This document shows positions 27,843 through 42,205 of a stretch of DNA of 64,000 nt, piece by piece. The DNA is taken from positions 28,247 to 92,246 of the IMG/VR virus record IMGVR_UViG_3300021437_000011; one strand, given 5' to 3'. The position numbers and the translations under genes are program-made. Positions within the stretch are counted from its first letter, which is position 1; every line of letters starts with the position of its first letter. Below the pieces are notes generated by a model. That model did no database searches. It was not told the DNA's origin and saw only the letters and a list, made by a program, of their open reading frames with translations. The stretch is from a virus.

Positions 27843-29938
27843 TGGCGGGAGAGCAAGCACAATTCGGCGCTCCCGCTGCTCCGGGAGCCACTGCTTTCTC
27901 TGAATGGGCGAAGGCTGGCGGGAAAGCTCCCGCCAGCGAATGGGACAAGTTTGGCCCCGCCGTCGCTCAGGCGCCCGCCAGCGAATGGGACCAATTTGGC
28001 CCCGCCGTCTCCCCAGAGACGGGAAAACCAAAAACATGGGGCGAATACGCCAAGGGCGTTGGCAGGTCGGCGGAGCAAGGGCTAACCTTTGGCTTCGGCG
28101 ATGAGATTAACGCCAATGCCCGCCACTACATCACCGGCGAGGACTACGACCAGGCGCTGGCTGATGAGCGGAGCAAACTCGCTCAGTTCAGAATATCGAA
28201 CCCTTATTCAGCATACGGGGCCGAGATCGGCGCGGGCATGGTCCTCCCCATGGGGGCGGCCGGAGGCGCAATGCGCGCCGGCGCAACTCTTGGGACTGCG
28301 GCCAAGGCTGGCGCCCTCACCGGAATGGGCCAAGGCGCTGCGTATGGCTTTGGCGCTGCTGAGGGGGGCGTTTTGCCCCGCGTCGCCGGTGCGGTTGAGG
28401 GCGGCGCGATTGGAGGCGCGGTAGGCGCGGCGGCTCCTGTCGTCGGCGCGGCTATTGGCGCTGGGGCGGGGGCTCTCGGCCGCGCTGCTGGGACGATTCT
28501 TAGCCCGACCGCCACCGCGGAGCGCTCTGCGGCCGAAGATATAGCCCATATGATCCAGCAAAGCGGCCTCGACCCGGCTGAGATAGCTGCGAATATGCGT
28601 CAGGGGCGTACTGGCTCGGCTGTTCCATTCAATGTGATTGACGCAGCGACCCAAACCGCTCGTGAAGCTGGTCGGCCTGGCGCTGACGTCGGACTTATCA
28701 ATGCGGCGCGAAACGCCGCAGGGACTGGCGGCCCTGCAGAGGCGATGGCCAGAGAGGCCCTCGAAACGCGCTTAGTAGACCAGCCCGCGCGTCTGCAGGA
28801 TCTTTTCTCTCGCGTAACAGGAGGACGCGATCTCGAAAGCGAGATGACGCGGCTTGATGCGGAAATCAATCAGAATGCTGGGACACGGTATCAGCAAGCA
28901 TACGCGAACGCGCGCGATTTCGACATTACGGCGGAAATGGGGCAATTTCTCGCGGGCAATGGCGAGATTCTCAAGACAAACTCCGGTCTTGGCGCTTCCG
29001 CACGCCAAGCCATCAGAATGTTTCTGGAGCGGCCAGACGCCATGGGCCGGGTTCGGCCCATCAGGACCGTCCCTGAATACATGGCCGTAAGGCGGTCTCT
29101 AGACGACATGATAGCCAAATCCATGGGCGCCAACGGCAGAGCCACTCCAGAGACACGGCTGCTGATGGACCTGCGTTCATCGATGAACGCGCCGAATGGC
29201 CCCGTAATGTCGGCTAATCCGCAGCTTGCGGCGGCGGACGCCATCTTTTCTGGCGCCAGGAGCGCTCAGGATGTGATGGCCCTTGGCGCTGGCGCGGTGA
29301 TGAAGGCTGGAGAGGAGCAACGCAGAGCTCTGACCCAGTTCGGCAGAATGACGCCTCCGCAGCAAGAGGCGTATCGCATTGGCGTCATGCAGAAGTTTGA
29401 CGACATGGTCACCTCGCAACGGTATCAGTCAACCATGCCAGCGAAGCAGTTTAACACCGAAGCGACTGAGAATTTTATTCGACGCGTATTCCCCCAAAAC
29501 CAAGCAGATAGGCTTTGGGGGGAAATCCAGCGCGAAAATATTGGAACGCGGACATTTGAAGGCGTTTTTAGCGGATCGCGTACAGCTCCAATGTTGTACC
29601 AGACCGAATACCGGGAATTGGCCCCAAGGATCGCTGGCAAGCTCGCATCCCTTGATATCCCCGGAACGATAAAAGCTATTGGAGACCTCGCCACCAAAAA
29701 TTACGGCGCGCAGAGGTCGCAAGAGCTGGTGCGCCAGCTTACCAGCATTGATCCCGCCGTCGCTCGCAATGCAGCCCGGACCATCGCGCAGATACCAGCC
29801 CGGACAGCAGCGGAAGAGGCAACTCGCCGTCGCGTTCGCTCCGCCCTGATCGGCGCCGCCCCAAAGATCGCAACGGAACAGCCTGCGTCCAGCAATGATC
29901 GCCAATACCAGATTAACGCCTTGAGGGGGCTAAGGTAA
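27842..29938 (+). CDS. Ejection (DNA transfer) protein
   Basis: QGLTFGFGDEI, G..YGFG..EGG; Gly/Ala-rich hydrophobic region. Confidence 0.7.
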   Translation: MAGEQAQFGAPAAPGATAFSEWAKAGGKAPASEWDKFGPAVAQAPASEWDQFGPAVSPETGKPKTWGEYAKGVGRSAEQGLTFGFGDEINANARHYITGEDYDQALADERSKLAQFRISNPYSAYGAEIGAGMVLPMGAAGGAMRAGATLGTAAKAGALTGMGQGAAYGFGAAEGGVLPRVAGAVEGGAIGGAVGAAAPVVGAAIGAGAGALGRAAGTILSPTATAERSAAEDIAHMIQQSGLDPAEIAANMRQGRTGSAVPFNVIDAATQTAREAGRPGADVGLINAARNAAGTGGPAEAMAREALETRLVDQPARLQDLFSRVTGGRDLESEMTRLDAEINQNAGTRYQQAYANARDFDITAEMGQFLAGNGEILKTNSGLGASARQAIRMFLERPDAMGRVRPIRTVPEYMAVRRSLDDMIAKSMGANGRATPETRLLMDLRSSMNAPNGPVMSANPQLAAADAIFSGARSAQDVMALGAGAVMKAGEEQRRALTQFGRMTPPQQEAYRIGVMQKFDDMVTSQRYQSTMPAKQFNTEATENFIRRVFPQNQADRLWGEIQRENIGTRTFEGVFSGSRTAPMLYQTEYRELAPRIAGKLASLDIPGTIKAIGDLATKNYGAQRSQELVRQLTSIDPAVARNAARTIAQIPARTAAEEATRRRVRSALIGAAPKIATEQPASSNDRQYQINALRGLR
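27927..28007 (+). repeat. Intragenic tandem duplication (APASEWDKFGPAV / APASEWDQFGPAV)
   Basis: Two near-identical units about 45 nt apart. Confidence 0.7.
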
Positions 29939-31074: not shown

Positions 31075-32210
31075 TGCCGTTTACTGGCAATACGTATACA
31101 GGCCCAGCCGGGTCAACCAACGCCACAGCCGGACAGGTTGTCCAGAGCGCGATTTGGAACGCCATCCATGGCGATCTGGCTACCGCCCTTACCACTTTGA
31201 TGACGCAGGCGAATACAAATGCGCCAGGATTCCAAAACGTCATGGCTCCGAATGGCAGCTTCCTGATCTGGCAGCGAGGGCTATCGATCGCCGTCCCAGC
31301 GTCAACGATAGCCTATACGGCCGATCGATGGTATCTGGCGACGGGGGCCACCGAGGCCAGCATTGTCGCCGCTGTTGCAGATCTTTCCGCAGGAGCGACG
31401 CCAAACTGCGCCGCCAAGGTTACGCGCAACTCCGGGCAGACCGGAACGGCGGTGGTGTCGTTTGGCTATCCATTTGACACTGATGAGATTTATAGGATGA
31501 GAGGGAGCCTGCTGTCGTTTAGCTGCGCGGTAAAATCTGGCGCCAACTGGTCTCCAGCCTCCGGGACGCTAACCGTCACGGTAGCATTCGGAACCGGGAG
31601 CGTGGGAAAGCGGGTGAACGGCTTTACTGCTGAAACCGTTGTCCTCACGATACCGACCAACCTCGCGGTAAGCAGCCCTAGAACAGTCATATCAGGAACA
31701 AGCACTGTAATAGTTCCTGTAAATTCTGGTCAGGGAGAAGTTCAGTTTACGTGGACTCCATCAGGCACCGCTGGCGCTGACGACAGCATCTCAATAGATG
31801 AGTGTTGCTTGGTTACTGGATCTCTTATCCAAAGCTTCACTGATATACCATTCCAGACCAGTCTTGATATGTGCAAAAGGCACTATCAGAAAACGTTCCC
31901 CTACGCCACTGCTCCGGCGCAAAACGCGGGAACCCAGGGCGCGTTGAGTCTGATCTCCGCGACATCAAAAGTCGGCCTGTTCTGGAAATTTGCGGACGAG
32001 ATGCGCGCTGCGCCGTGGGCTATCACCACCTATTCGCCAGGCGGGGCCACGGCGAACTGGTATGACCTCACGGGAGGCGTCAGTCTCGTCACTGTTGTCG
32101 ATGTGACCAACAGCGGCAGCACTATGGGGATTATGCTCTACAGCGCGGCGACTGCAGCCGCGGCTGACCACCTCATTTATCTTCACGCCGACGCCAACGC
32201 CTCAATTTGA
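31074..32210 (+). CDS. Tail fibre / receptor-binding protein
   Basis: NG.F.IWQRG...YTADRW ... CKRHYQK motifs. Confidence 0.75.
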   Translation: MPFTGNTYTGPAGSTNATAGQVVQSAIWNAIHGDLATALTTLMTQANTNAPGFQNVMAPNGSFLIWQRGLSIAVPASTIAYTADRWYLATGATEASIVAAVADLSAGATPNCAAKVTRNSGQTGTAVVSFGYPFDTDEIYRMRGSLLSFSCAVKSGANWSPASGTLTVTVAFGTGSVGKRVNGFTAETVVLTIPTNLAVSSPRTVISGTSTVIVPVNSGQGEVQFTWTPSGTAGADDSISIDECCLVTGSLIQSFTDIPFQTSLDMCKRHYQKTFPYATAPAQNAGTQGALSLISATSKVGLFWKFADEMRAAPWAITTYSPGGATANWYDLTGGVSLVTVVDVTNSGSTMGIMLYSAATAAAADHLIYLHADANASI

Positions 32211-32630
32211 TGGAGGCGTCCACTTGTATGTGTTCTGAATGTGCGTGAAATTAAGCATCTCGAACATGCCAATCGATGGGTAGTTTCGCGGGTTGATGTT
32301 GGCGAAGAGAGGCGCGTTCGACCTCTGCTGGAGCCTGACGACGGCTCGTGGCCCGCGCCCCTTTCCACGATATCGCCGAAGCAGGAAGAGCCCAACTTCA
32401 TTCGCCTTGGAAAGGTACATGGCTCCGACGCGCACGCCGTCGTCAACGAGCAACCACCAGTCCTTGTATGGGCGTCCCAAAACAAAATCAACGTGTGTGG
32501 GACGGCCTGGCATTGAAATGTGGCTGATATTGGTGGTCTCGTCTCTCTCAGCGAGCAGATCGTAGAGAAAATCAAGCGTCTCTGAGGGGGGCTCCCCCTC
32601 TTGCGGGTAGATGCTCACCAATTCGATCAC
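32202..32630 (-). CDS. GNAT N-acetyltransferase, PseH-like
   Basis: YRGKG.G and NINP.N..SI..FE.L.F; GTGA overlap with upstream gene; last gene of the sugar operon. Confidence 0.75.
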   Translation of the reverse strand: MIELVSIYPQEGEPPSETLDFLYDLLAERDETTNISHISMPGRPTHVDFVLGRPYKDWWLLVDDGVRVGAMYLSKANEVGLFLLRRYRGKGRGPRAVVRLQQRSNAPLFANINPRNYPSIGMFEMLNFTHIQNTYKWTPPSN

Positions 32631-33244
32631 GGCTGCTTCTCCAGAAGATGCCAAGTCACGTTATCGAGCCCAGTGGCGGGCTTCCACTCAAAGCCATAGG
32701 CGATGCATCTGAGGTCCGGGAATCGCTCCAGATAGAGCGAGCCGTAGTCGGCCTTCCATAGCGCGCCAGCGCGCCCTCGATATTCGACCGCCGTCACCTC
32801 CGGGCTGAAATATTCGATGGCGGCGATCCAGTGACTGGAAACCCGGTGAATCTCGTCCATGGCCGCCCCAAGCTTCGCAGGGGGGATATGAATCAGGACT
32901 CCTGAAGTGAAGACAAAATCATTCGAGGCGTCCTGAAGCGGAATTTGGCCAGCGCAGCCGCTCAGGACCTCCGCCCCGATATTGGTTTTCATGTACTCCC
33001 TAGCGCGCTGGTTGGGCTCGATGGCGGTCAACGCCACGGTGGGGCCAACCATATATCTGAGCGCTTTCAGGTTGGCTCCACATCCCGCGCCAATCTCAAC
33101 CGCCGATCTGATCTTTTCTTTCATCGCTCCAACGATTTTGAGAAGGAGTCGGCGGCGAGCCTCAATATTTTCGAACGAAGAGCAGTTCCTCTCGGTATAG
33201 TCATCGCCAAACTGACCTTCCCACAGCTTAAGATTATCATCCAT
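32627..33244 (-). CDS. Pseudaminic-acid-biosynthesis-associated SAM methyltransferase
   Basis: W.G.FGD.YT.RN, EIGAG.GANL, FVFTSGVLIHI, YRG...LWK.DYG. Confidence 0.88.
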   Translation of the reverse strand: MDDNLKLWEGQFGDDYTERNCSSFENIEARRRLLLKIVGAMKEKIRSAVEIGAGCGANLKALRYMVGPTVALTAIEPNQRAREYMKTNIGAEVLSGCAGQIPLQDASNDFVFTSGVLIHIPPAKLGAAMDEIHRVSSHWIAAIEYFSPEVTAVEYRGRAGALWKADYGSLYLERFPDLRCIAYGFEWKPATGLDNVTWHLLEKQP

Positions 33245-33875
33245 TCGACGACCTCAATATATCTTCAAGTCTCTTTATGTCTTCGGGGAAGTCTACACAG
33301 TAGTTAATGTCGGAAACATTGACCTTAGCCGCCAGTGTCCCTATGTCAAGGCGTTTATTATTTTGCATCCAGGGAGTTACGTGCTCCCTATCGTACGGAT
33401 CAGATGCCTCTCCGCTTGCCGCCTCCAGGCAACCCATGGTAAAGCATTCGCAATCGAACCCTTTTGGAAATGTCCTGGTGGGATGCACGTTCGATGCGTA
33501 GTCAAGATCCTCTTTTTTAAGCATCTCAAGCACGAGTTCGCATAACGCAGGATCAATGAACGGACAGTCCGCTGTCAAGCGCATGATGATATCGGCTTTG
33601 ACATCCTTGGCCGCCTCTTGATAGCGGCCGAGGACGTCATCCTCATCTCCAGCGAAAGCAAGAACGCGCATCTCTCGGCATAGGTTCAGGATGGGCAAGG
33701 ACGCCTCATCCTCTGGGAACGCGCACACCACTTTATCAATCCCAGAAATAAGTTTGGCCCTCGTTAGGACATGCTCCAGAACAGGCTTCCCGTCGAGAAG
33801 CGCCATGGTTTTTCCTGGAAATCTTCTTGAAGTCATCCTCGCTTGTATAATGCACGCGCTTACAATTCCGGTCAT
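33237..33875 (-). CDS. SpsF/PseF-like cytidylyltransferase
   Basis: IIQARM.S.RFPGK, G.EDDVL.RY, RLTADCPFIDP, REHVTP. Confidence 0.88.
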   Translation of the reverse strand: MTGIVSACIIQARMTSRRFPGKTMALLDGKPVLEHVLTRAKLISGIDKVVCAFPEDEASLPILNLCREMRVLAFAGDEDDVLGRYQEAAKDVKADIIMRLTADCPFIDPALCELVLEMLKKEDLDYASNVHPTRTFPKGFDCECFTMGCLEAASGEASDPYDREHVTPWMQNNKRLDIGTLAAKVNVSDINYCVDFPEDIKRLEDILRSSNG

Positions 33876-34618
33876 CCTGCCAGCCTTGTGTTAATCCCAT
33901 GGTCATGGAGATAGCGCCGCGCCCCCTGCGGCGTCATCTCGGCAAAAAGAAACCCCGCGCCAACGGCCACCGCGTCGGCGCCAACTTCGAACGCCTCAAG
34001 GAGATGAGCGTAATTCCCAGCGCCGCCAGCCGCGATAACGGGAACGCTGACGGCGGTCGAAACCTTTTGGATCAAATCACGATCAAATCCCGCCTCGCCG
34101 CCATCATGGGGAATGCTGGTTAAAATGATCTCTCCAACGCCATCTTCAACAGCGGCGCGCGCCATACATTCTGGACGTATATTATTGATTTTATTGCCAC
34201 ATTCCGTAATAACGCGATCATGGGCGACATCGATCGCGGCGACTATGGCCTGGGCGCCAAAGCGCTCAGACGCCGCGCGGATCAAAACACGATCAAATAA
34301 TGCGGAACCGAGCACAACCTTATCCGCGCCGGCGCGAAGGAGCTCGCGGATATGCTCCAACGTCGAAACCCCGCCTCCGATCGCTACGGGCATGAAGCAT
34401 TCAGCAGTGAACTCCCTCAGCTCGGCGAAGCGCGGCTCGCGGGCCTCTGGCGTCGCCGCGACATCGAGAATGACCAGCTCATCGATCTGACGCCGGTCAC
34501 ACACCCGGATAGCCTGCATAAGGGAGCCAACATGGCGCCGGTTGTGGAACTGCTTTCCCTTCACCAAGGATTTGCCATCCCACAAAAGCGTGGTGATAAC
34601 CCGCCTCTTGATCATCAC
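33872..34618 (-). CDS. HisF-like cyclase (WbuZ type)
   Basis: LVKG.QF, IDEL..LD, CFMP..IGGGV, GADKVV, GEIILTSI..DG. Confidence 0.9.
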   Translation of the reverse strand: MMIKRRVITTLLWDGKSLVKGKQFHNRRHVGSLMQAIRVCDRRQIDELVILDVAATPEAREPRFAELREFTAECFMPVAIGGGVSTLEHIRELLRAGADKVVLGSALFDRVLIRAASERFGAQAIVAAIDVAHDRVITECGNKINNIRPECMARAAVEDGVGEIILTSIPHDGGEAGFDRDLIQKVSTAVSVPVIAAGGAGNYAHLLEAFEVGADAVAVGAGFLFAEMTPQGARRYLHDHGINTRLAG

Positions 34619-35736
34619 GCGACCTCAAAAAGCGGCGTAGGACGCGGCGCGCTCAGGGACAAACTGAAGATCTGCTTGTTCGTGAATCGATCGGCCACAT
34701 TCACAAAATCATTGAGATTCAGGCCGAGGGGGCCGACGATTTCATGGAGCGGCTTTCCCAAGTAGGTCCAAGGGAACGCCCCGTCACGCTCCCTGACCAA
34801 GGCGACGGCTTCACTGCGTGCGAGTCTCCCGCGGCGGATATGGTTGCAGGCTATGTCGGTGGCGCGGCCGTAACCGTATTTCACCCACCGTAGATAATCA
34901 CGGCCGCCAGTGCAATAATTATCAAGATTCTCATAACCATAAAGGCTGCCTTCGATGTGACCGTCAATGTATTCAAATCCGCTTTGCTCTGCTATAACAA
35001 AGTTCTCATACCCATCCCATGGGAAATATCTCCCAAGCCATACGGATTGTATGCCTTTTTCCGAAAGAATGTCGCTAGACGGGAACCTATACATAGCCAT
35101 GTCATCGCATGACAGCCCTAAAATTTCCTGAACATCATCAACGCGCAGACCCAAAAGCCCAGCAAATTCCTCAATATAGCGACGCGTCATGCGTGGCGTA
35201 TCTTCGGAGCCAGCGGGGCCTGCTCCGTATTCGTCCTGAGATAGCTCGCCAAAGACGATTGTTGGGATATTCCACTTCACGGCTGCCTGGAAGGGAATGG
35301 TGTGGATTAGCACATGCTCCGGCCACGACCAGTCGCCCACCTCAGTCAGAGCCAAGCGCATGATCCGATGGCGGACCTCATCATTGGGGTGAAATTCGAC
35401 GAGATCGCACATCCGGCCGATATTGTCCAGATTGCGTCGCCCGATTGGCGTCAACATGTCAGTCCGCGCGTTGACGGCGAGGACCCGGAAACCAAGATCC
35501 TTGCATTTCACAACCTGCGCCGTGCTATCCTTTCCGCCGCTGACGGGGACAATCACGAGGGGCTCCCCCTTATGCCGCCAGCTCAGCTCCACCGTCTTCG
35601 CGAATTCCACGGCCCTGGCGGCCCAGTCGACGGCTTGGCGGCGGTCATAATTCTGGCAGGCGGAACACAGGCCATCTTCATCAAAGCGAAGGTCTGGTTT
35701 CAGTTCGGGGTAAACGCAGCGTATGCAGTATCTCAT
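34615..35736 (-). CDS. N-acetyl sugar amidotransferase (WbuX/PseA type)
   Basis: C.RC.YP..KP...FD..G.CSAC, PP-loop VSGGKDS, KYGYGRAT. Confidence 0.9.
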   Translation of the reverse strand: MRYCIRCVYPELKPDLRFDEDGLCSACQNYDRRQAVDWAARAVEFAKTVELSWRHKGEPLVIVPVSGGKDSTAQVVKCKDLGFRVLAVNARTDMLTPIGRRNLDNIGRMCDLVEFHPNDEVRHRIMRLALTEVGDWSWPEHVLIHTIPFQAAVKWNIPTIVFGELSQDEYGAGPAGSEDTPRMTRRYIEEFAGLLGLRVDDVQEILGLSCDDMAMYRFPSSDILSEKGIQSVWLGRYFPWDGYENFVIAEQSGFEYIDGHIEGSLYGYENLDNYCTGGRDYLRWVKYGYGRATDIACNHIRRGRLARSEAVALVRERDGAFPWTYLGKPLHEIVGPLGLNLNDFVNVADRFTNKQIFSLSLSAPRPTPLFEVA

Positions 35737-35748
35737 AAAATTTACCCC

Positions 35749-36762
35749 TTATTCGAACATTCCCTCTGACAATGCTGTTCCCTTATCGAGGTCTCTTCTA
35801 GATTTTTTTCCCAGAACTCCAGAATATTTGCTAGGGTCCAACCCATATCCTGGACGTATTACTTTAACATTGTCACACGTGAAACATTCTCCTTTTTTTA
35901 TGTCTTCGACGACGTAGATTGACCTTTTCATTTGCATGCTGGTTTCTTCGCTTCTTGGAGCCTCGCATTGCATGGCGGCCCATGCCATTTCGACGGAGCT
36001 GACGAAGTCGCGGAAGCGCTCCGGGCGGCAGGCAAAGTCCTCGTCAGCGCTCCCGCGCTCTCCAATGTGCTTTTCAATGACGCGCACCCCGCACGCAACG
36101 GCGGCGATCGCCGTGATGTTGTTGATGGTATGGTCGCTGAAACCAATCTCATGGCGAGAAAAGCGGCTCTGCAGATTCCTGATAGACCACAGATTGGCCT
36201 CCCGAACTGGTGTGGGGTAGCCCGACACACAGTGCAGAATGACGACGTCGCGCCCATAGAGGGCGTCCAGAGCCGCATTGATGTCATAGAGGCTTGCCAT
36301 GCCCGTGGAGATAATGACGGGCTTCTGCGTCTCGCGAACGCGCTCCAAAAGCTGAAAATGGTTGATCTCGGCCGATGCGATTTTATAGGCGGGGCAGTCG
36401 ATTTCCTCTAGAAAATCAACATCCTCAACCGAGAACGGGCTGGAGAAAATCGGAACGCCCAAGCCTTCCGCAGCATCAAAAAGCGGCCTGTGCCACTCGC
36501 GAGGCGTCATCGCCTCGCTGTACAGGTCATAGAGGTTCCGCCCTTTCCAGGCGCCGCCCTTGATCTCGAAGTCCGGGCCATTGCACTTGATCGTCAGGCT
36601 ATCGGGAGTGTAGGTCTGGATCTTGATCGCCCCAGCGCCGGCGCGCGCTGCGTCAACGACAAGCTCTTGGGCCTGCTCCAGGTCGCCACAGTGACCGCTT
36701 CCGATCTCCGCAATGGTAAGGGGCGGGCGGTTGAGCCCGAAGTCGTACCCAAGGATATTCAT
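35749..36762 (-). CDS. pseI: Pseudaminic acid synthase (NeuB family, C-terminal SAF domain)
   Basis: IAEIG..H.G, K.QTYTPD, YKIAS.E, IISTGMA, LHCVSGYP, GFSDHT, IEKH, IRPG.GL.P. Confidence 0.88.
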   Translation of the reverse strand: MNILGYDFGLNRPPLTIAEIGSGHCGDLEQAQELVVDAARAGAGAIKIQTYTPDSLTIKCNGPDFEIKGGAWKGRNLYDLYSEAMTPREWHRPLFDAAEGLGVPIFSSPFSVEDVDFLEEIDCPAYKIASAEINHFQLLERVRETQKPVIISTGMASLYDINAALDALYGRDVVILHCVSGYPTPVREANLWSIRNLQSRFSRHEIGFSDHTINNITAIAAVACGVRVIEKHIGERGSADEDFACRPERFRDFVSSVEMAWAAMQCEAPRSEETSMQMKRSIYVVEDIKKGECFTCDNVKVIRPGYGLDPSKYSGVLGKKSRRDLDKGTALSEGMFE

Positions 36763-37373
36763 TTGAAGATCTCCAACATCGACAAATCTGGATATTGATC
36801 GTTATGCAGATCAGGATTGCATCGAGGCAGGGAATGGAGCTTCAACAGCCCCTGGGCAGATGTTGATGGATTCATATAGCAATGCCATCCCAGCATAGGA
36901 AAAGCGTCGTTTTTCGGGGCTACGCCCTCAGTCCGGCCATCAAATCGCGCGCGGCGGAACCAAGCGTCAGCCTCGGGATCATCATGAAGGATAGCGCCGC
37001 CCTGCTCTAGCCCCAGGATCTTGGAAGCGTGGAAAGAGACGCAAACATACTTGTAGTCCTCCTCGCGCCCCGTGGTTGCGAACATCCTCCACGTAAAGCG
37101 CCTAGCAGCATCGTAAATTCTGTGCGGCCACAGCCGGTAAGCGCCCCTCCATGGTCTATCCTCAAATTTAACCGTTCCTCCAGCATGGATAATGCTCATG
37201 GGGACACTGACATATGTACGTTTTGGGATAATAACTTCGCCTACGCATTTATATTTACAGCATAAGAATAGAGCCATTGTGCACGAATTCACAGCAACGG
37301 CGTAAGGAGCGCCAGTATATTCGCATAGCGCTTCTTCGAAATCTTTCGTTACCTGATGTGGGTTGCGCGTCAT
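36759..37373 (-). CDS. Short DegT/DnrJ PLP aminotransferase (PseC-like)
   Basis: FE..L..YTGAPYAVAVNSCT.AL, SFH.SK.L..EQGG; only about 204 aa. Confidence 0.8.
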   Translation of the reverse strand: MTRNPHQVTKDFEEALCEYTGAPYAVAVNSCTMALFLCCKYKCVGEVIIPKRTYVSVPMSIIHAGGTVKFEDRPWRGAYRLWPHRIYDAARRFTWRMFATTGREEDYKYVCVSFHASKILGLEQGGAILHDDPEADAWFRRARFDGRTEGVAPKNDAFPMLGWHCYMNPSTSAQGLLKLHSLPRCNPDLHNDQYPDLSMLEIFK

Positions 37374-37374
37374 C

Positions 37375-38334
37375 TTAAACGGACCCAAGCAGCATCTTCA
37401 GGTCATCCGTCGACAGCCACTTATCATTGCGCTCCGAACTCAGCGAGAAACCCTCTTCCATGGGCTCGCTGGGCAAGAGCCAAGGCGGGCAGACGACGAA
37501 GGCGTATTCGTTCTGCGTCGCCGTCCGCCCCTCGTGGACAGTGATAATATCCTCGTGGAGCTTTTCTCCTGGTCGAACGCCAATGATTTCGCACGGGTAA
37601 TCATCCTGGCCATAGATTGCGGCGGCCAGATCCGAGATGCGAAAGCTGGGCATCCGCGGGATGAAGACCTCGCCGCCTTGCATTACGCCCAGACCATTCA
37701 GGACAAACTCCACGGCGTCTTGAATTGTAATCCAAAAGCGGGTCATGTCGAGGTGAGTGACGGGCAACGGCCTGCCCAGGGCGGACAGGAAGCGCCACCG
37801 GGGGATAACGGACCCGCGCGAGCCCGAAACGTTGCCGTAGCGAACGACCGAAAAGGCGGGGCCTCCCGCGCTGGTGAGATTGTTGGCGGCGACAAACAGC
37901 TTCTCGGCTGAGAGTTTCGTGGCTCCGTAAAGATTCGCTGGAGAAACAGCCTTATCCGTGGACAGAGCTATGACTTTAGCTACGCCGCAGGCCAGGGCGG
38001 CGCTTATGACATTGGACGCGCCTCCAATGTTGGTTTTAATCGCTTCAATGGGGTCTTTTTCGCATGCTGGGACGATCTTCATCGCCGCGGCGTGGATCAC
38101 GACGTCCACGCCCTTGAACGCCATTTTGAGACGATTCTCATCACGAACATCGCCAATATAAAACCGGAGCCGATCATCGGCGAGGGACTCCGGCCGCGCC
38201 AACGCCATAGCCTCTTGCTTCTGTTCGTCGCGCGAATAGATGGCGATTTTGGCGATGTTCCGGTCAAGGAGCAGCCTATCCACGATCGCTTGGCCAAAAG
38301 TGCCGGTTCCGCCAGTAATGAGAACGCTGTTCAT
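37375..38334 (-). CDS. pseB: UDP-GlcNAc 4,6-dehydratase (inverting)
   Basis: ITGGTGTFG, SRDE.KQ, GDVRD, HAAA.K.VP..E, STDKA..P.NLYGATK, RYGNV.GSRGSV, MTRFWIT, RPGEKLHE. Confidence 0.92.
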   Translation of the reverse strand: MNSVLITGGTGTFGQAIVDRLLLDRNIAKIAIYSRDEQKQEAMALARPESLADDRLRFYIGDVRDENRLKMAFKGVDVVIHAAAMKIVPACEKDPIEAIKTNIGGASNVISAALACGVAKVIALSTDKAVSPANLYGATKLSAEKLFVAANNLTSAGGPAFSVVRYGNVSGSRGSVIPRWRFLSALGRPLPVTHLDMTRFWITIQDAVEFVLNGLGVMQGGEVFIPRMPSFRISDLAAAIYGQDDYPCEIIGVRPGEKLHEDIITVHEGRTATQNEYAFVVCPPWLLPSEPMEEGFSLSSERNDKWLSTDDLKMLLGSV

Positions 38335-38723
38335 GCGCCAGCCTCCTTTTGCTCGGGAATCCCGACCATCCACGCCGGGGGGAGGACAAAATCATAATGG
38401 AGGGGGCGCCAGAGATGGAGGCAGTTGACGTGGTTGTTGATATGGTCGGATTCGGCGACATGGAATTGAACCGCTACCTCATGGGGCAGGAAAAACGCCC
38501 TTTTGATGAATTCCATTTCGATCCAATTGGGAACCCGGTTCTTGCGGCTCACGGACACATGGTCCCAACCTTCTCCAGAAGAAGCGATGACGCACATAAA
38601 CGCTTTATCAATGGGCGACATGAGGAAGAATCGCCCGCAGGAATCATCCCCATATCCGCCGTATATTGCAATGACATCACGAGACCTGTCCCTAAATTGG
38701 TTCAGGTCATTCAAGTTCCGCAT
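38331..38723 (-). CDS. Conserved phage hypothetical protein
   Basis: GWDHVSVS...R.P.W.EM..IK..FF...H...SDHIN.H..CLHLWRP pattern. Confidence 0.75.
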   Translation of the reverse strand: MRNLNDLNQFRDRSRDVIAIYGGYGDDSCGRFFLMSPIDKAFMCVIASSGEGWDHVSVSRKNRVPNWIEMEFIKRAFFLPHEVAVQFHVAESDHINNHVNCLHLWRPLHYDFVLPPAWMVGIPEQKEAGA

Positions 38724-38996: not shown

Positions 38997-39209
38997 ATGA
39001 CTAGCACTCATCACGACCATCTCGCCGATCACAAGGATCATCATCACAACTCCGCGCATCACCAGCTTACGTATGTCGTGGAGGCCGGAAATCATGCGAT
39101 GACGCATCTGGCGAAGAAGACGCCTGAAGATCGTGCAATCGCCAAGGACATCATCGGGCATCTGATTTCAAGCGTAAGCGCCCTTGAGGCCCACGCCGAG
39201 CATCTCTGA
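38997..39209 (+). CDS. Small His-rich protein
   Basis: MTSTHHDHLADHKDHHHNSAHH...; followed by a strong hairpin. Confidence 0.6.
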   Translation: MTSTHHDHLADHKDHHHNSAHHQLTYVVEAGNHAMTHLAKKTPEDRAIAKDIIGHLISSVSALEAHAEHL

Positions 39210-39259
39210 AAAATAACCCGAGCCGCTGAGCCATCACCAGCGGCTCGGGTTGCATTTTT
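39210..39259. terminator. Bidirectional intrinsic terminator
   Basis: 14-bp stem AACCCGAGCCGCTG/CAGCGGCTCGGGTT with an A-tract on the left and a T-tract on the right. Confidence 0.8.
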
Positions 39260-39617
39260 CATGGGAGCGTTGATTCGTGCCGGAATATGCCTGGGCAAGT
39301 CGTCTCGTACGCAAATGGTCCCATCAGTTCACTTCGTGCATACGCATAAGGTAGACGTATCCGACGTGCGCTTCATGCAGTAAATATCCCGTGCGATCTT
39401 GCTTGTGTTGGCCCATGTCGAGATGGACGTGCTTCGTGCAGCGGGCGTCACTTAAGCGTACTAGCCGTCTTTGCAAATCGAGCTTAAGCGCTGGGAATCA
39501 ATTGGATCGCTCGTGCTTTTTCACGGCGCGCCTCTTCGTGCAAGCATGAGAGCCAGCGAAGGCGCGTGCATCCCAGCCCGCATTGAAGTTGCTGGCCTAG
39601 CCGGATCGAACATGTAG

Positions 39618-40133
39618 TCGTGGATCGTGCTCGCGTGGAAGATATAGGCTATTCGCTAATACCCCTGTAATTATTACTCGTGCCTCCGTGCTCGCGTGGA
39701 GGATACCGATCTATGACAATCACATTTGATCACCTCCGCCGTGCATCCGCGTTCGCGTGGGGGATACACGATATTCGATTTGTAGGCGAAGCCCCACGCC
39801 CGTGCATCCGCGTTCGCGTGGGGGATGCTATAAACTTTGTTGCGGTATGCCATAGGATTCCCGTGCATCCGCGCTCGCGTGGAGGATACTATTAATTTTC
39901 TTGCAGCGATGTTATACCCTGCCGTGCATCCGCGCTCGCGTGGAGGATACGGGATCACCCATTGATCCGGGCCGTTATTCGCCCGTGCATCCGCGCTCGC
40001 GTGGAGGATACACCTCCGCATCCCATTTCGGGCCAGATCGGGCCCGTGCATCCGCGCTCGCGTGGAGGATACTAAAGCTCGATGGCGTCGGCGACGGTGA
40101 GGGCCCGTGCATCCGCGCTCGCGTGGAGGATAC
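39618..40133 (-). CRISPR. CRISPR array: 9 repeats (29 nt, type I-E-like, GTATCCTCCACGCGAGCGCGGATGCACGG) and 8 spacers of 32 nt
   Basis: Repeats start at 39618 (degenerate, 28 nt), 39678, 39739, 39800, 39861, 39922, 39983, 40044 and 40105, a 61-nt period. Degeneration increases leftward, placing the leader on the right (minus-strand transcription). Confidence 0.96.
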
Positions 40134-40409
40134 CCTTCCGCGTAAGCGTATGATCCATATATCAAAGAGCACGGATAGCTTCGCCCACCACCACAGGAAC
40201 GCTTTATTCCCCCGTCTTCGTGCGCCGACTCGTAGACCGCGAATACACACGTTCCGCCGCCAAGCTACACTCTAGTGCCGTTGCCTTGCTGTCGGCTCAC
40301 TCCCCCGAGGGTTTGTGCTGCGCACCCGCTTGGCCTTACACGGCAGCCCCCTGAAACCTCAGCTTCAGAGGGCGGGCAGTTACTTTCCCCCGCACGCGAG
40401 GGTAGGGGA
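40134..40409 (-). ncRNA. Putative omegaRNA/tracrRNA-like scaffold and array leader
   Basis: Lies between the tnpB-like stop and the first repeat. Minus strand reads UACCCUCGCGUGCGGGGGAAAGUAACUGCCCG...GUAAGGC...CGAAGACGGGGGAA, resembling IS605 omegaRNA landmarks from memory. Contains a hairpin at ~40348-40372 and CCGUGCUC, complementary to the repeat 3' end. Confidence 0.55.
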
Positions 40410-41831
40410 TCAATCCCAAGCTCGTTTGAGCTGGCTAGCCGCCTTGGCGATCTGGCCTTGCTCATATTCATTTTGCGCGGCGTTGGCTTGCCGCGAAACG
40501 TAATTACCGCAATCGCATATTAGCATGCGCTTTTCAAGAGGCATGTAATGGAGTTTCCCACACCGCGAGCATTTTTGCACCTCGGGAAAGAGCGTATGCG
40601 TTTCGTTGTACGTGCGACCGCGGTCGACAGCCTTGTATCCAAGGTAGCCCCGGAACTGCGCCATGGCGGCGCGCTTGTTCGCTTTTGTCAGGATTTTAGG
40701 AACTCTTTCAACATCTCCCGTCTGTTTGTTAACCCTTTTTGTCGTCATGAGCGATTTAACATCCATCTTATGCACAGTTATCGTGTCGAACTGCTTAACG
40801 ATCGCGTCAGAGACCTTATGCAGCATATCGTCGCGTCGATTGCGCTCCTTGGCGTGGAGATTCGCCAATTCGTCGGCTGTCTTGTAATAATCCTTCGTCC
40901 CCTTATGGCGGCGCGCCAAACGTCGGTTAGCGAGCCTGATGCGCCGCGCCAGCTTCCTGTCCTCTTTCATCGGCGGCGTTTGCTGGATTTTTTCCCCGTC
41001 GAATGTGGTCGCCAGAATGCTGGCGGAGATCTTGACGCCGCATTCGCGCCCGAAGTGTGGATAGGGTTTGGGGTCAGGGACTTCGAATTGACAAGACAGC
41101 CACCACTGCTCTCCCAGACGCCAGATGCGCCCTCCCTGCAGCTTGCCGTCAATAGGGACGCCCTCTTGCCTGAAGGTGATAGCTTGTTTCAGCTTCGGCA
41201 GCTTCACCTCTCGGGCTTTGTGGTCAAATATTGTTTGAGTGTTGACCATATAGACGCTCCCTACGGCATAGCGCGACTTTTTGAAGCGGGGGAACCCTGT
41301 GTCTCTTCCTCCAGCCCCGTCTTTGCGCTTCTTCCGCTCAAGGAGCATGGTTTTTATGGCTTTGACGACATCCTTACAGACCTGCTGAGAGGAGTGTGAG
41401 GGAAGCGCCTCAATCCATTTCATGGTCGGATTCTCCTTGAGACGAGCCATGATCTTCTGAAGATCGCTTTCCCAAATAAAAAGTTTGGGAGGCTCTCCAT
41501 CCACAGAGGAACCGGAAATTTTTTGGTAATGGTCTTGCGGCGGCTCTACAGGCTCCTTCCCTTCTCCAGGTTTTTTCTTAACAATTCCATACTTTGTTTT
41601 CTTGCCATATTTCCAGGAATGGAGAGCATCCGCATATCCCTCCTTAACGACTTGCGCCCAAATCTCGCGCCAGCGTAATTCTGGGCGGAATTTTGATCCG
41701 TCGTAGGCCGCCTGCTCCATCCCAAGCAGCAAATTCCACAGGTTTATGCCTCCTCGACGCCACCGATCCATGGTCCTCGCCTGCTCGGGCGTCGGCTTCA
41801 GCTTTATCTTAACCCCACGCATTACCGCCAT
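40410..41831 (-). CDS. Nuclease-dead TnpB/Cas12-like RNA-guided protein (TldR-like), CRISPR-associated
   Basis: KIKLKPTPEQ N-terminus, GFPRFKK, VKLPKL, WWLSCQFEV; RuvC-I GVKIS (D to K267), RuvC-II ITVHKMDV (E to H354), CSRC/CDC zinc finger, RuvC-III SRQANAAQN (D to Q448). Confidence 0.88.
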   Translation of the reverse strand: MAVMRGVKIKLKPTPEQARTMDRWRRGGINLWNLLLGMEQAAYDGSKFRPELRWREIWAQVVKEGYADALHSWKYGKKTKYGIVKKKPGEGKEPVEPPQDHYQKISGSSVDGEPPKLFIWESDLQKIMARLKENPTMKWIEALPSHSSQQVCKDVVKAIKTMLLERKKRKDGAGGRDTGFPRFKKSRYAVGSVYMVNTQTIFDHKAREVKLPKLKQAITFRQEGVPIDGKLQGGRIWRLGEQWWLSCQFEVPDPKPYPHFGRECGVKISASILATTFDGEKIQQTPPMKEDRKLARRIRLANRRLARRHKGTKDYYKTADELANLHAKERNRRDDMLHKVSDAIVKQFDTITVHKMDVKSLMTTKRVNKQTGDVERVPKILTKANKRAAMAQFRGYLGYKAVDRGRTYNETHTLFPEVQKCSRCGKLHYMPLEKRMLICDCGNYVSRQANAAQNEYEQGQIAKAASQLKRAWD

Positions 41832-42205
41832 TTATTCCCTGCCTTTAGCCATTGCCGTGATTTTATGAATGTGTGAACATATGGTATGCAACCATACTTG
41901 TCATCCAACCAAAGTGGAGGAGTTTATGCGCTGCGCATACACGGTGGTTATAGAGTGCGGAGAAATAACATGTAATGAAAGAGAAAAATCATGCGTTTTC
42001 TTAGCGATAAGGCGAACAGGCTCAGAGGCTGTCTGCTTATTTCCTCACGGCGGACCCCTTAATGGCAAGAGGGTCACTCCCCTGCGGACAAGAGAGGGGT
42101 GGGTCATCAGATCCGAGGACTGCAAAGACGCTTTCAAGGTTGTCGATAGCGAGTAGCGCATTAAGAAATAACCATATTCCAGGCAAAATATGCATAGGTA
42201 TCAAG

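Follow-up and report, generated by a model that had tools for sequence, protein, structure and literature searches.

The sixth spacer of a CRISPR array carried by a tailed freshwater phage was, judging from its sequence, copied from the coding strand of a gene for an MT-A70 N6-adenine DNA methyltransferase of the AWGF[AT]YKSNIVWHK subfamily, an origin that is secure as to the gene family. The array is adjoined by the gene of a TnpB-derived effector that is predicted to be nuclease-dead, and it is moderately probable that the spacer, most likely derived from the M gene of a restriction-modification (R-M) cassette, guides this effector to the template strand of that gene and blocks transcription or replication without cleavage. 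It is the sole examined spacer of the array with a statistically secure database target, which opens a phage-borne, nuclease-dead type V system to direct testing, with a guide, its target gene family and strand, and candidate natural targets (phage Lo5R7ANS and viral contig L292) available.

The DNA analysed (the window) is a stretch of 64,000 nt, positions 28,247 to 92,246 of IMG/VR record IMGVR_UViG_3300021437_000011. The whole record has 92,246 bp and is complete by CheckV. It represents a tailed phage with portal (4e-175), major head protein (2e-106), terminase and lysis genes, was found in two freshwater metagenomes, and encodes a portal whose nearest counterparts belong to phages of Bradyrhizobium, Rhizobium and Brucella. 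Six-frame searches found no Cas1, I-E-type Cas2 or MT-A70 in this carrier, with a positive control for MT-A70 that worked; spacer 6 is therefore not self-targeting. A GcrA-like regulator, an FtsK/SpoIIIE-family protein, a C5 cytosine methyltransferase and a DUF4942 protein are also encoded, along with one protein matching the PADLOC SspH model (7.7e-46) and two MptE-like proteins. On the minus strand, window positions 32202-38373 hold a cluster for the biosynthesis of a nonulosonic-acid (pseudaminic/legionaminic-type) sugar beside the tail genes, with PseB-like, DegT, NeuB, HisF-like, CMP-transferase and methyltransferase members. Between the sugar cluster and the array lies a small His-rich ORF of 70 aa (38997-39209, plus strand) with many HH/HxH motifs, which ends at a terminator reading as such on both strands.

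The locus (Table 1) shows three or more near-identical direct repeats, constant spacing and unique spacers, and is thus a CRISPR array; the minus-strand repeat consensus is GTATCCTCCACGCGAGCGCGGATGCACGG. Decay of the repeats marks the old end, which places the leader on the 40134 side, gives the array a minus-strand reading direction and makes spacer 6 the sixth from the leader. On that strand spacer 6 reads GCGTGGGGCTTCGCCTACAAATCGAATATCGT, and its first frame translates to AWGFAYKSNI followed by GT; the first-pass annotation, which had read AWGFAYKSNI(V) at this place, was exact in both coordinates and sequence. Both repeats beside spacer 6 keep the predicted 6-bp closing stem intact and end in 13 nt identical to the consensus, while one substitution converts a G-U pair to a G-C pair. 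For spacer 1, a 'ThyX' match in Streptomyces phages (28/32) was rejected as chance, since it covers no more than the final 10 nt of the CDS, at an E of 0.6. In the second freshwater metagenome, effector gene and decayed array end were identical to those of the window, on contigs that do not cover the spacers. A low-depth contig of the same run carries five to six leader differences (window 40206 and 40236-40276) and diverges completely towards the array, with a loose end before 40206; it hints at a strain with another leader-proximal array end.

Table 1. Coordinates of the array, the effector gene and their neighbouring signals in the window.
Feature	Position	Strand	Description
Intrinsic terminator closing the minus-strand unit	39215..39251	-	15-bp stem, T tail; strong
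Decayed distal repeats and spacer remnants, old array end	39564..39677	-	decayed copies at 39564-39645
CRISPR array	39678..40133	-	8 repeats of 29 nt, 7 unique spacers of 32 nt, 61-nt period
Variant repeat 3' of spacer 6	39739..39767	-	2 changes from consensus
Spacer 6	39768..39799	-	32 nt, sixth of 7; sense is that of the MT-A70 coding strand
Variant repeat 5' of spacer 6 in the transcript	39800..39828	-	3 changes from consensus
Leader between effector gene and array	40134..40409	-	276 nt; possible leader or tracrRNA region
Cas12n/TnpB-like effector ORF	40410..41831	-	473 aa; same strand, directly upstream of array, 276-nt gap
Weak sigma-70-like promoter match upstream of effector gene	41876..41904	-	number of matches in the region not above shuffles

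The effector was matched by the PADLOC Cas12 type V-F model PDLC01226 (E 2e-109) and, in Pfam, by OrfB_IS605 and Cas12f1-like TNB domains. A profile of the effector family matches RdCas12n, identified as PDB 9J09 from PMC12216341, over its full length (residues 6-467, E 1.5e-28), which is the longest stretch matched in a solved structure; the same profile matches ISDra2 TnpB over the C-terminal two thirds, and a PDB match to Cas12m4a is partial (E 1e-5). The PDB alignment revealed that the catalytic residues D191/E278/D361 of ISDra2 TnpB correspond to K267/H354/Q448 in the window effector. The RuvC-I position is Lys in all 31 effector relatives, none of which has Asp at RuvC-III; the cysteines of the zinc finger are invariant, and this finger is intact in the window protein. 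The family alignment has 50 invariant columns over 31 relatives with 38-83% identity; the closest homologs (P0003-P0011) share 62-83% identity and some lie on contigs of 70-92 kb. As in type V, the array has beside it one TnpB-derived effector that combines a RuvC fold with a zinc finger, while the RuvC D-E-D triad is absent from it. To all appearance the loss of the triad counts against a nuclease function and not against Cas12 descent, and the effector would be unable to use the canonical RuvC site. By analogy with Cas12n, the members of this family of about 470 aa are probably monomeric.

Seven viral relatives of the effector locus (L251-L257, IMG/VR) were found by profile search, of which a single-sequence search found none. 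Downstream of the effector gene, six of the seven carry a same-strand array with a 61-nt period and 10-29 repeats. In five of them the interval between gene and array contains Cas1 and/or Cas2 ORFs, the only ones identified there, and their Cas2 belongs to the type I-E family PF09707. The linkage of gene and array is thus conserved, and the window phage appears to hold a reduced version from which the adaptation genes were lost. The effectors of L256 and L257 are longer (about 707 aa) with a DUF2695 insertion, and the L256 array has a duplicated spacer pair. Comparison of the 96 spacers of the relatives among themselves, with the carrier phage and with the R-M loci yielded only matches of 15-19 nt.

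The origin of spacer 6 was established by nucleotide matches. Unconstrained BLASTN gave, as the best phage match, 29/32 in gene 14 of Mesorhizobium phage vB_MloP_Lo5R7ANS (E 5e-4), for a chance expectation in the phage database of 3.5e-5 matches with at most three mismatches; the '...VMAAWGFTYKSNIVWHK...' block of that gene is aligned with the spacer in the same frame and orientation. The sole full-length plasmid match, also by unconstrained BLASTN, was 27/32 in an annotated MT-A70 gene of a Roseomonas plasmid. In a codon-degenerate scan for AWGF[AT]YKSNI(V), 3 contigs came from viruses, at least 120 from genomes and at least 119 from metagenomes; closer or exact matches may exist in the last two collections, which were searched for this motif alone. 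In 242 loci among the matches listed, one in-frame site has one mismatch, seven have two and 26 have three, the best being 31/32 in a Xanthobacteraceae MAG (L100). For a random 32-mer in 596 Gb, the expected numbers are 6e-6 with at most one mismatch, 3e-4 at 30/32 and 9e-3 with at most three. Sites with one to three mismatches occur in many alphaproteobacterial genomes and metagenomes, and the near-identical ones are all in frame with the block AWGF[AT]YKSNIVWHK of PF05063 proteins.

Membership in PF05063 was tested for the genes with the three best genome sites (L245-L247), the best viral site (L292) and Lo5R7ANS gp14, and all scored above the gathering score (1.9e-29, 3.1e-30, 8.4e-28, 4.0e-33 and 5.2e-30, respectively). 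The spacer itself spans the AWGF.YKSNI block only; upstream of AWGF lies the catalytic DPPW motif, as 'VLADPPWRF' in Lo5R7ANS gp14 and with the consensus 'ILADPPWQF' in 120 homologs. Homologs of the L245 MT-A70 gene form at least 8000 clusters, the best 120 of which share 74-91% identity, all with PF05063. The first-pass annotation had recognized an MT-A70-like motif in the spacer, a view with which a protospacer outside MT-A70 had been named beforehand as incompatible; every near-identical site sits inside an MT-A70 gene. A ten-residue peptide is short, and a spacer might merely happen to translate into something MT-A70-like; the 31/32 and 30/32 nucleotide matches, against such small expectations and all in frame in PF05063 genes, make mere coincidence practically negligible. 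Another idea, that the spacer lies on the most conserved block of the gene as an escape-proof site, was rejected because the block's identity of 0.905 compares with a protein mean of 0.874 and ranks about 100th of 200 windows.

Although the gene family is secure, the 32-nt piece cannot be assigned to one source genome. No exact spacer and no strict AWGFAYKSNI(V) codon pattern was matched in IMG/VR, and a 32/32 protospacer was found neither in IMG/VR, nor in phage and plasmid records, nor in the genomes and metagenomes among the matches listed. In a family-wide search of 401 sampled genomes of the best-matching family, three sites with at most three mismatches and no exact one were found. When the whole array was compared with the full records of Lo5R7ANS, L292, L283, L003 and L005, spacer 6 alone matched. 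With its three mismatches, a GCG 5' flank and no other spacer matching, Lo5R7ANS is taken as a relative of the source and not the source itself.

The flanks of the sites bear on how such a target might be recognized. AAG is the commonest 5' flank (81 of 242 sites among the matches listed; 104 of 242 with AAG or AAA), because a Lys codon usually precedes AWGF (consensus VMKAWGF). Cas12n uses a 5'-AAN PAM and a guide of about 20 nt (PMC12216341), and by analogy such a PAM would be compatible with the AAG- or AAA-flanked MT-A70 sites, a statement of compatibility only. Three genome or metagenome sites among the matches listed are perfect over guide positions 1-20, and their flanks, CGC, CGG and CAG, differ from the AAN expected of Cas12n. 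Several viral sites are perfect over the same positions; those of L292 and L283 also have the AAG flank, and the L292 site, preceded by ATGAAG, agrees with the spacer at 20/20 of positions 1-20 and at 28/32 in total.

These flanks can also be read as belonging to a host system, in which the phage mini-array would be read by type I-E Cas6e, Cascade and Cas3 of the host and MT-A70 targets with an AAG PAM would be degraded. Repeats and spacers have the usual type I-E lengths, the relatives carry the I-E Cas2 family, AAG is the commonest of the listed flanks, and the repeat ends in G, as the I-E repeats of E. coli do. This reading is nevertheless improbable. The array is accompanied on its own strand by a dead Cas12-like gene, as are those of six of the seven viral relatives, five of which have only Cas1 and/or Cas2 ORFs identified between the two. 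No type I Cas protein (Cascade Cse1, Cse2, Cas7, Cas5 and Cas6e; Cas3) was found among the 82 larger ORFs of the phage (padloc, best 25 of 59 families; Pfam). The repeat, at up to three mismatches, was not found in the five genomes with the best protospacer matches, its exact form had 0 matches in IMG/VR, and the predicted repeat fold leaves a 4-nt 3' tail instead of the 8-nt I-E handle.

Loss of Cas1-Cas2 and mutation of the older repeats mean that the spacer could be an inherited relic, acquired by an ancestor equipped with Cas1-Cas2 and carried along passively with no current target or function. The absence of both genes from the carrier would agree with this, as would the age of the spacer, which lies between two mutated repeats next to decayed units, and the failure to find an exact target in IMG/VR, in phage and plasmid records or among the genome and metagenome matches listed. 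The effector gene is, however, intact and constrained, as the invariant columns of its alignment indicate; gene and decayed array end are identical in the second freshwater metagenome; the repeat mutations keep the stem and the 3' half; and targets perfect over a 20-nt guide exist. A relic is thus rather unlikely, though it deserves to be kept in mind.

The gene family from which the spacer came was found largely in the company of a restriction endonuclease (REase). In Lo5R7ANS, gene 13, upstream of and overlapping the MT-A70 gene 14, encodes a BglII-family REase (PF09195, 3.2e-50). With this protein and the L247 protein (PF09195, 1.7e-24) as tblastn probes, a BglII-family REase was found to adjoin the MT-A70 gene in 146 of 242 loci among the matches listed, and in 72 of the 100 listed loci that have at least 1.3 kb upstream and at least 1.5 kb downstream. 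The latter proportion makes it most likely that the source gene served as M in a mobile type II R-M cassette, members of this MT-A70 subfamily being for the most part the methyltransferase halves of such pairs. The statement in the first-pass annotation that MT-A70 genes often sit in R-M operons was thereby borne out. Beside the single best site (L245) no recognizable REase was found and the neighbours are housekeeping-type genes. Just upstream of that best-matching gene, L245:7659-9095 holds three small ORFs with low GC3 and no family match, which could be an unrecognized REase or an island remnant. At L247:8912-9898 the MT-A70 protein is longer at its N-terminus by about 110 aa (328 aa versus about 215-240 aa), with a convergent BglII-family REase.

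Most copies of the gene lie on large bacterial contigs, mainly of Alphaproteobacteria (among the matches listed). Sites with at most three mismatches in just 3 of 401 genomes of the best family indicate that the cassette is sporadic and accessory, not core. To the question whether the gene next to the REase belongs to a chromosome or to a phage or plasmid, the answer was both chromosomes and at least two unrelated phages, namely Lo5R7ANS, an Autographiviridae phage, and L292 (IMGVR_UViG_3300025310_000014, a 38.6-kb IMG/VR contig). In the latter, an R-to-M cassette (L292:4595-6129) is inserted between the genes for portal (2e-118) and large terminase (1e-200), as a moron within the packaging module.

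The arrangement of R and M limits what a block inside M could achieve. The 146 cassettes among the matches listed comprise 62 R-to-M tandems, 56 convergent pairs, 19 divergent pairs and 9 M-to-R tandems, so that a block inside M would usually reduce M and not R (137 of 146 listed cassettes). Chromosomes of the likely host class commonly bear the targeted R-M cassette, as might be expected if the guide silenced an R-M operon of the host and so allowed incoming phage DNA to escape restriction. Just 9 of the 146 cassettes place R downstream of M and codirectional with it, which makes a simple switch-off of restriction unlikely; in the other 137 only protective methylation would fall. Moreover, repression would come too late for DNA already injected, and a site with at most three mismatches occurs in just those 3 of the 401 sampled genomes; escape from restriction is very unlikely to be the purpose. 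The earlier proposal that the spacer is a guide against either a defence-type operon or a competing mobile element therefore stands in both its branches, as the data fit each; the geometry speaks against turning restriction off.

The same geometry allows a different outcome, in which the putative repressor would deplete M of a rival's R-M cassette, whether on a co-infecting phage or in the host, while the endonuclease is still made and the carrier of the cassette is destroyed. This is hardly probable; if true, it would be a programmable turning of a restriction system on its owner, analogous to post-segregational killing.

The favoured reading remains binding to the M gene without cleavage. 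Because spacer 6 has the sense of the coding strand, a crRNA made from it would pair with the template strand of M, and the template strand is where DNase-dead Cas12a, targeted within genes, represses most strongly (PMC5460296). The effector-array operon would be transcribed by the phage during infection, and the crRNA would bring the dead effector onto the template strand within M of an encountered cassette, be it on a co-infecting phage, on a prophage or island, or on the host chromosome. The bound complex would then block RNA polymerase, or a replication fork, without cutting. The phage gains no obvious direct benefit from silencing M, and three options are left, namely interference with a rival phage bearing the cassette, unbalancing of the cassette against its carrier, and no present function.

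The target gene family and the R-M cassette are ordinary. For a phage-borne guide against an R-M methyltransferase gene, no report was found in the open-access literature. Were the guide functional, it would demonstrate RNA-guided DNA binding directed by a virus at an R-M gene, and the exapted uses of TnpB/Cas12 (Cas12k, Cas12m, TldR and sigma-linked dCas12f) would extend to conflict between phage and defence or between phage and phage. Furthermore, an effector family of about 470 aa that by sequence is naturally dead may interest builders of compact CRISPRi or base-editor scaffolds.

Among the known systems, Cas12n (type V-N, formerly V-U4; RdCas12n 9J09) is likewise miniature and TnpB-like, and its A-rich 5'-AAN PAM (PMC12216341) would fit AAG, the commonest flank of the listed MT-A70 sites. 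Type V-N is further marked by a tracrRNA that overlaps the ORF at its 3' end. Cas12n is, however, an active nuclease, whereas the family of the window effector is RuvC-dead. The catalytic RuvC triad is not retained everywhere in type V and has also been lost in Cas12k and some Cas12m. Cas12m (type V-M) and Cas12c interfere by DNA binding without cutting (PMC11013384). With them the window system shares a small, single, TnpB-derived effector with a downstream array; the PAM-dependent binding roadblock is theirs (PMC11013384) and is only proposed here. It differs from Cas12m in that its effector is nearest to Cas12n over the full length and has all three RuvC residues replaced, the first by the invariant Lys. 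It differs also in its 29-nt I-E-like repeats, in the I-E-type Cas1-Cas2 of the relatives, and in being encoded by a phage. Of type I-E itself, only the repeat and spacer geometry and the Cas2 family are matched, no Cascade or Cas3 match having been found among the 82 larger ORFs.

Several virus-borne guides are also known. Each TldR works with one fixed guide, omega-RNA-like and aimed at flagellin or opp promoters of the host. TldRs are prophage-encoded, TnpB-like, nuclease-dead repressors (bioRxiv 10.1101/2023.11.30.569447), and the window effector resembles them as a phage-borne RuvC-dead TnpB descendant that would be expected to act as an RNA-guided repressor. Unlike a TldR with its fixed single guide, it is accompanied, here and in the relatives, by a multi-spacer CRISPR array, and the relatives add an adaptation module; the target of spacer 6 lies inside the coding region of an R-M gene. 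Viral guides against mobile elements or host loci occur in Vibrio phage ICP1, whose type I-F system acts against PLE, and in the mini-arrays of huge phages and archaeal viruses. Those cleave or use host nucleases, whereas here the effector appears nuclease-dead and the target is an R-M methyltransferase gene. On the side of the target, genes 13-14 of Lo5R7ANS provide a natural counterpart, a BglII-family REase with an MT-A70 gene that resembles spacer 6 in frame at 29 of 32 positions. Many candidate V-U subtypes, including ones whose sites are inactivated, appear in a census of TnpB and Cas12 (PMC10691335); the window effector family may be one of these V-U candidates. In conclusion, the array-effector system appears to resemble the binding-only type V systems (V-M, V-C and V-K) and TldR, while the effector comes closest to Cas12n but is predicted to be dead.
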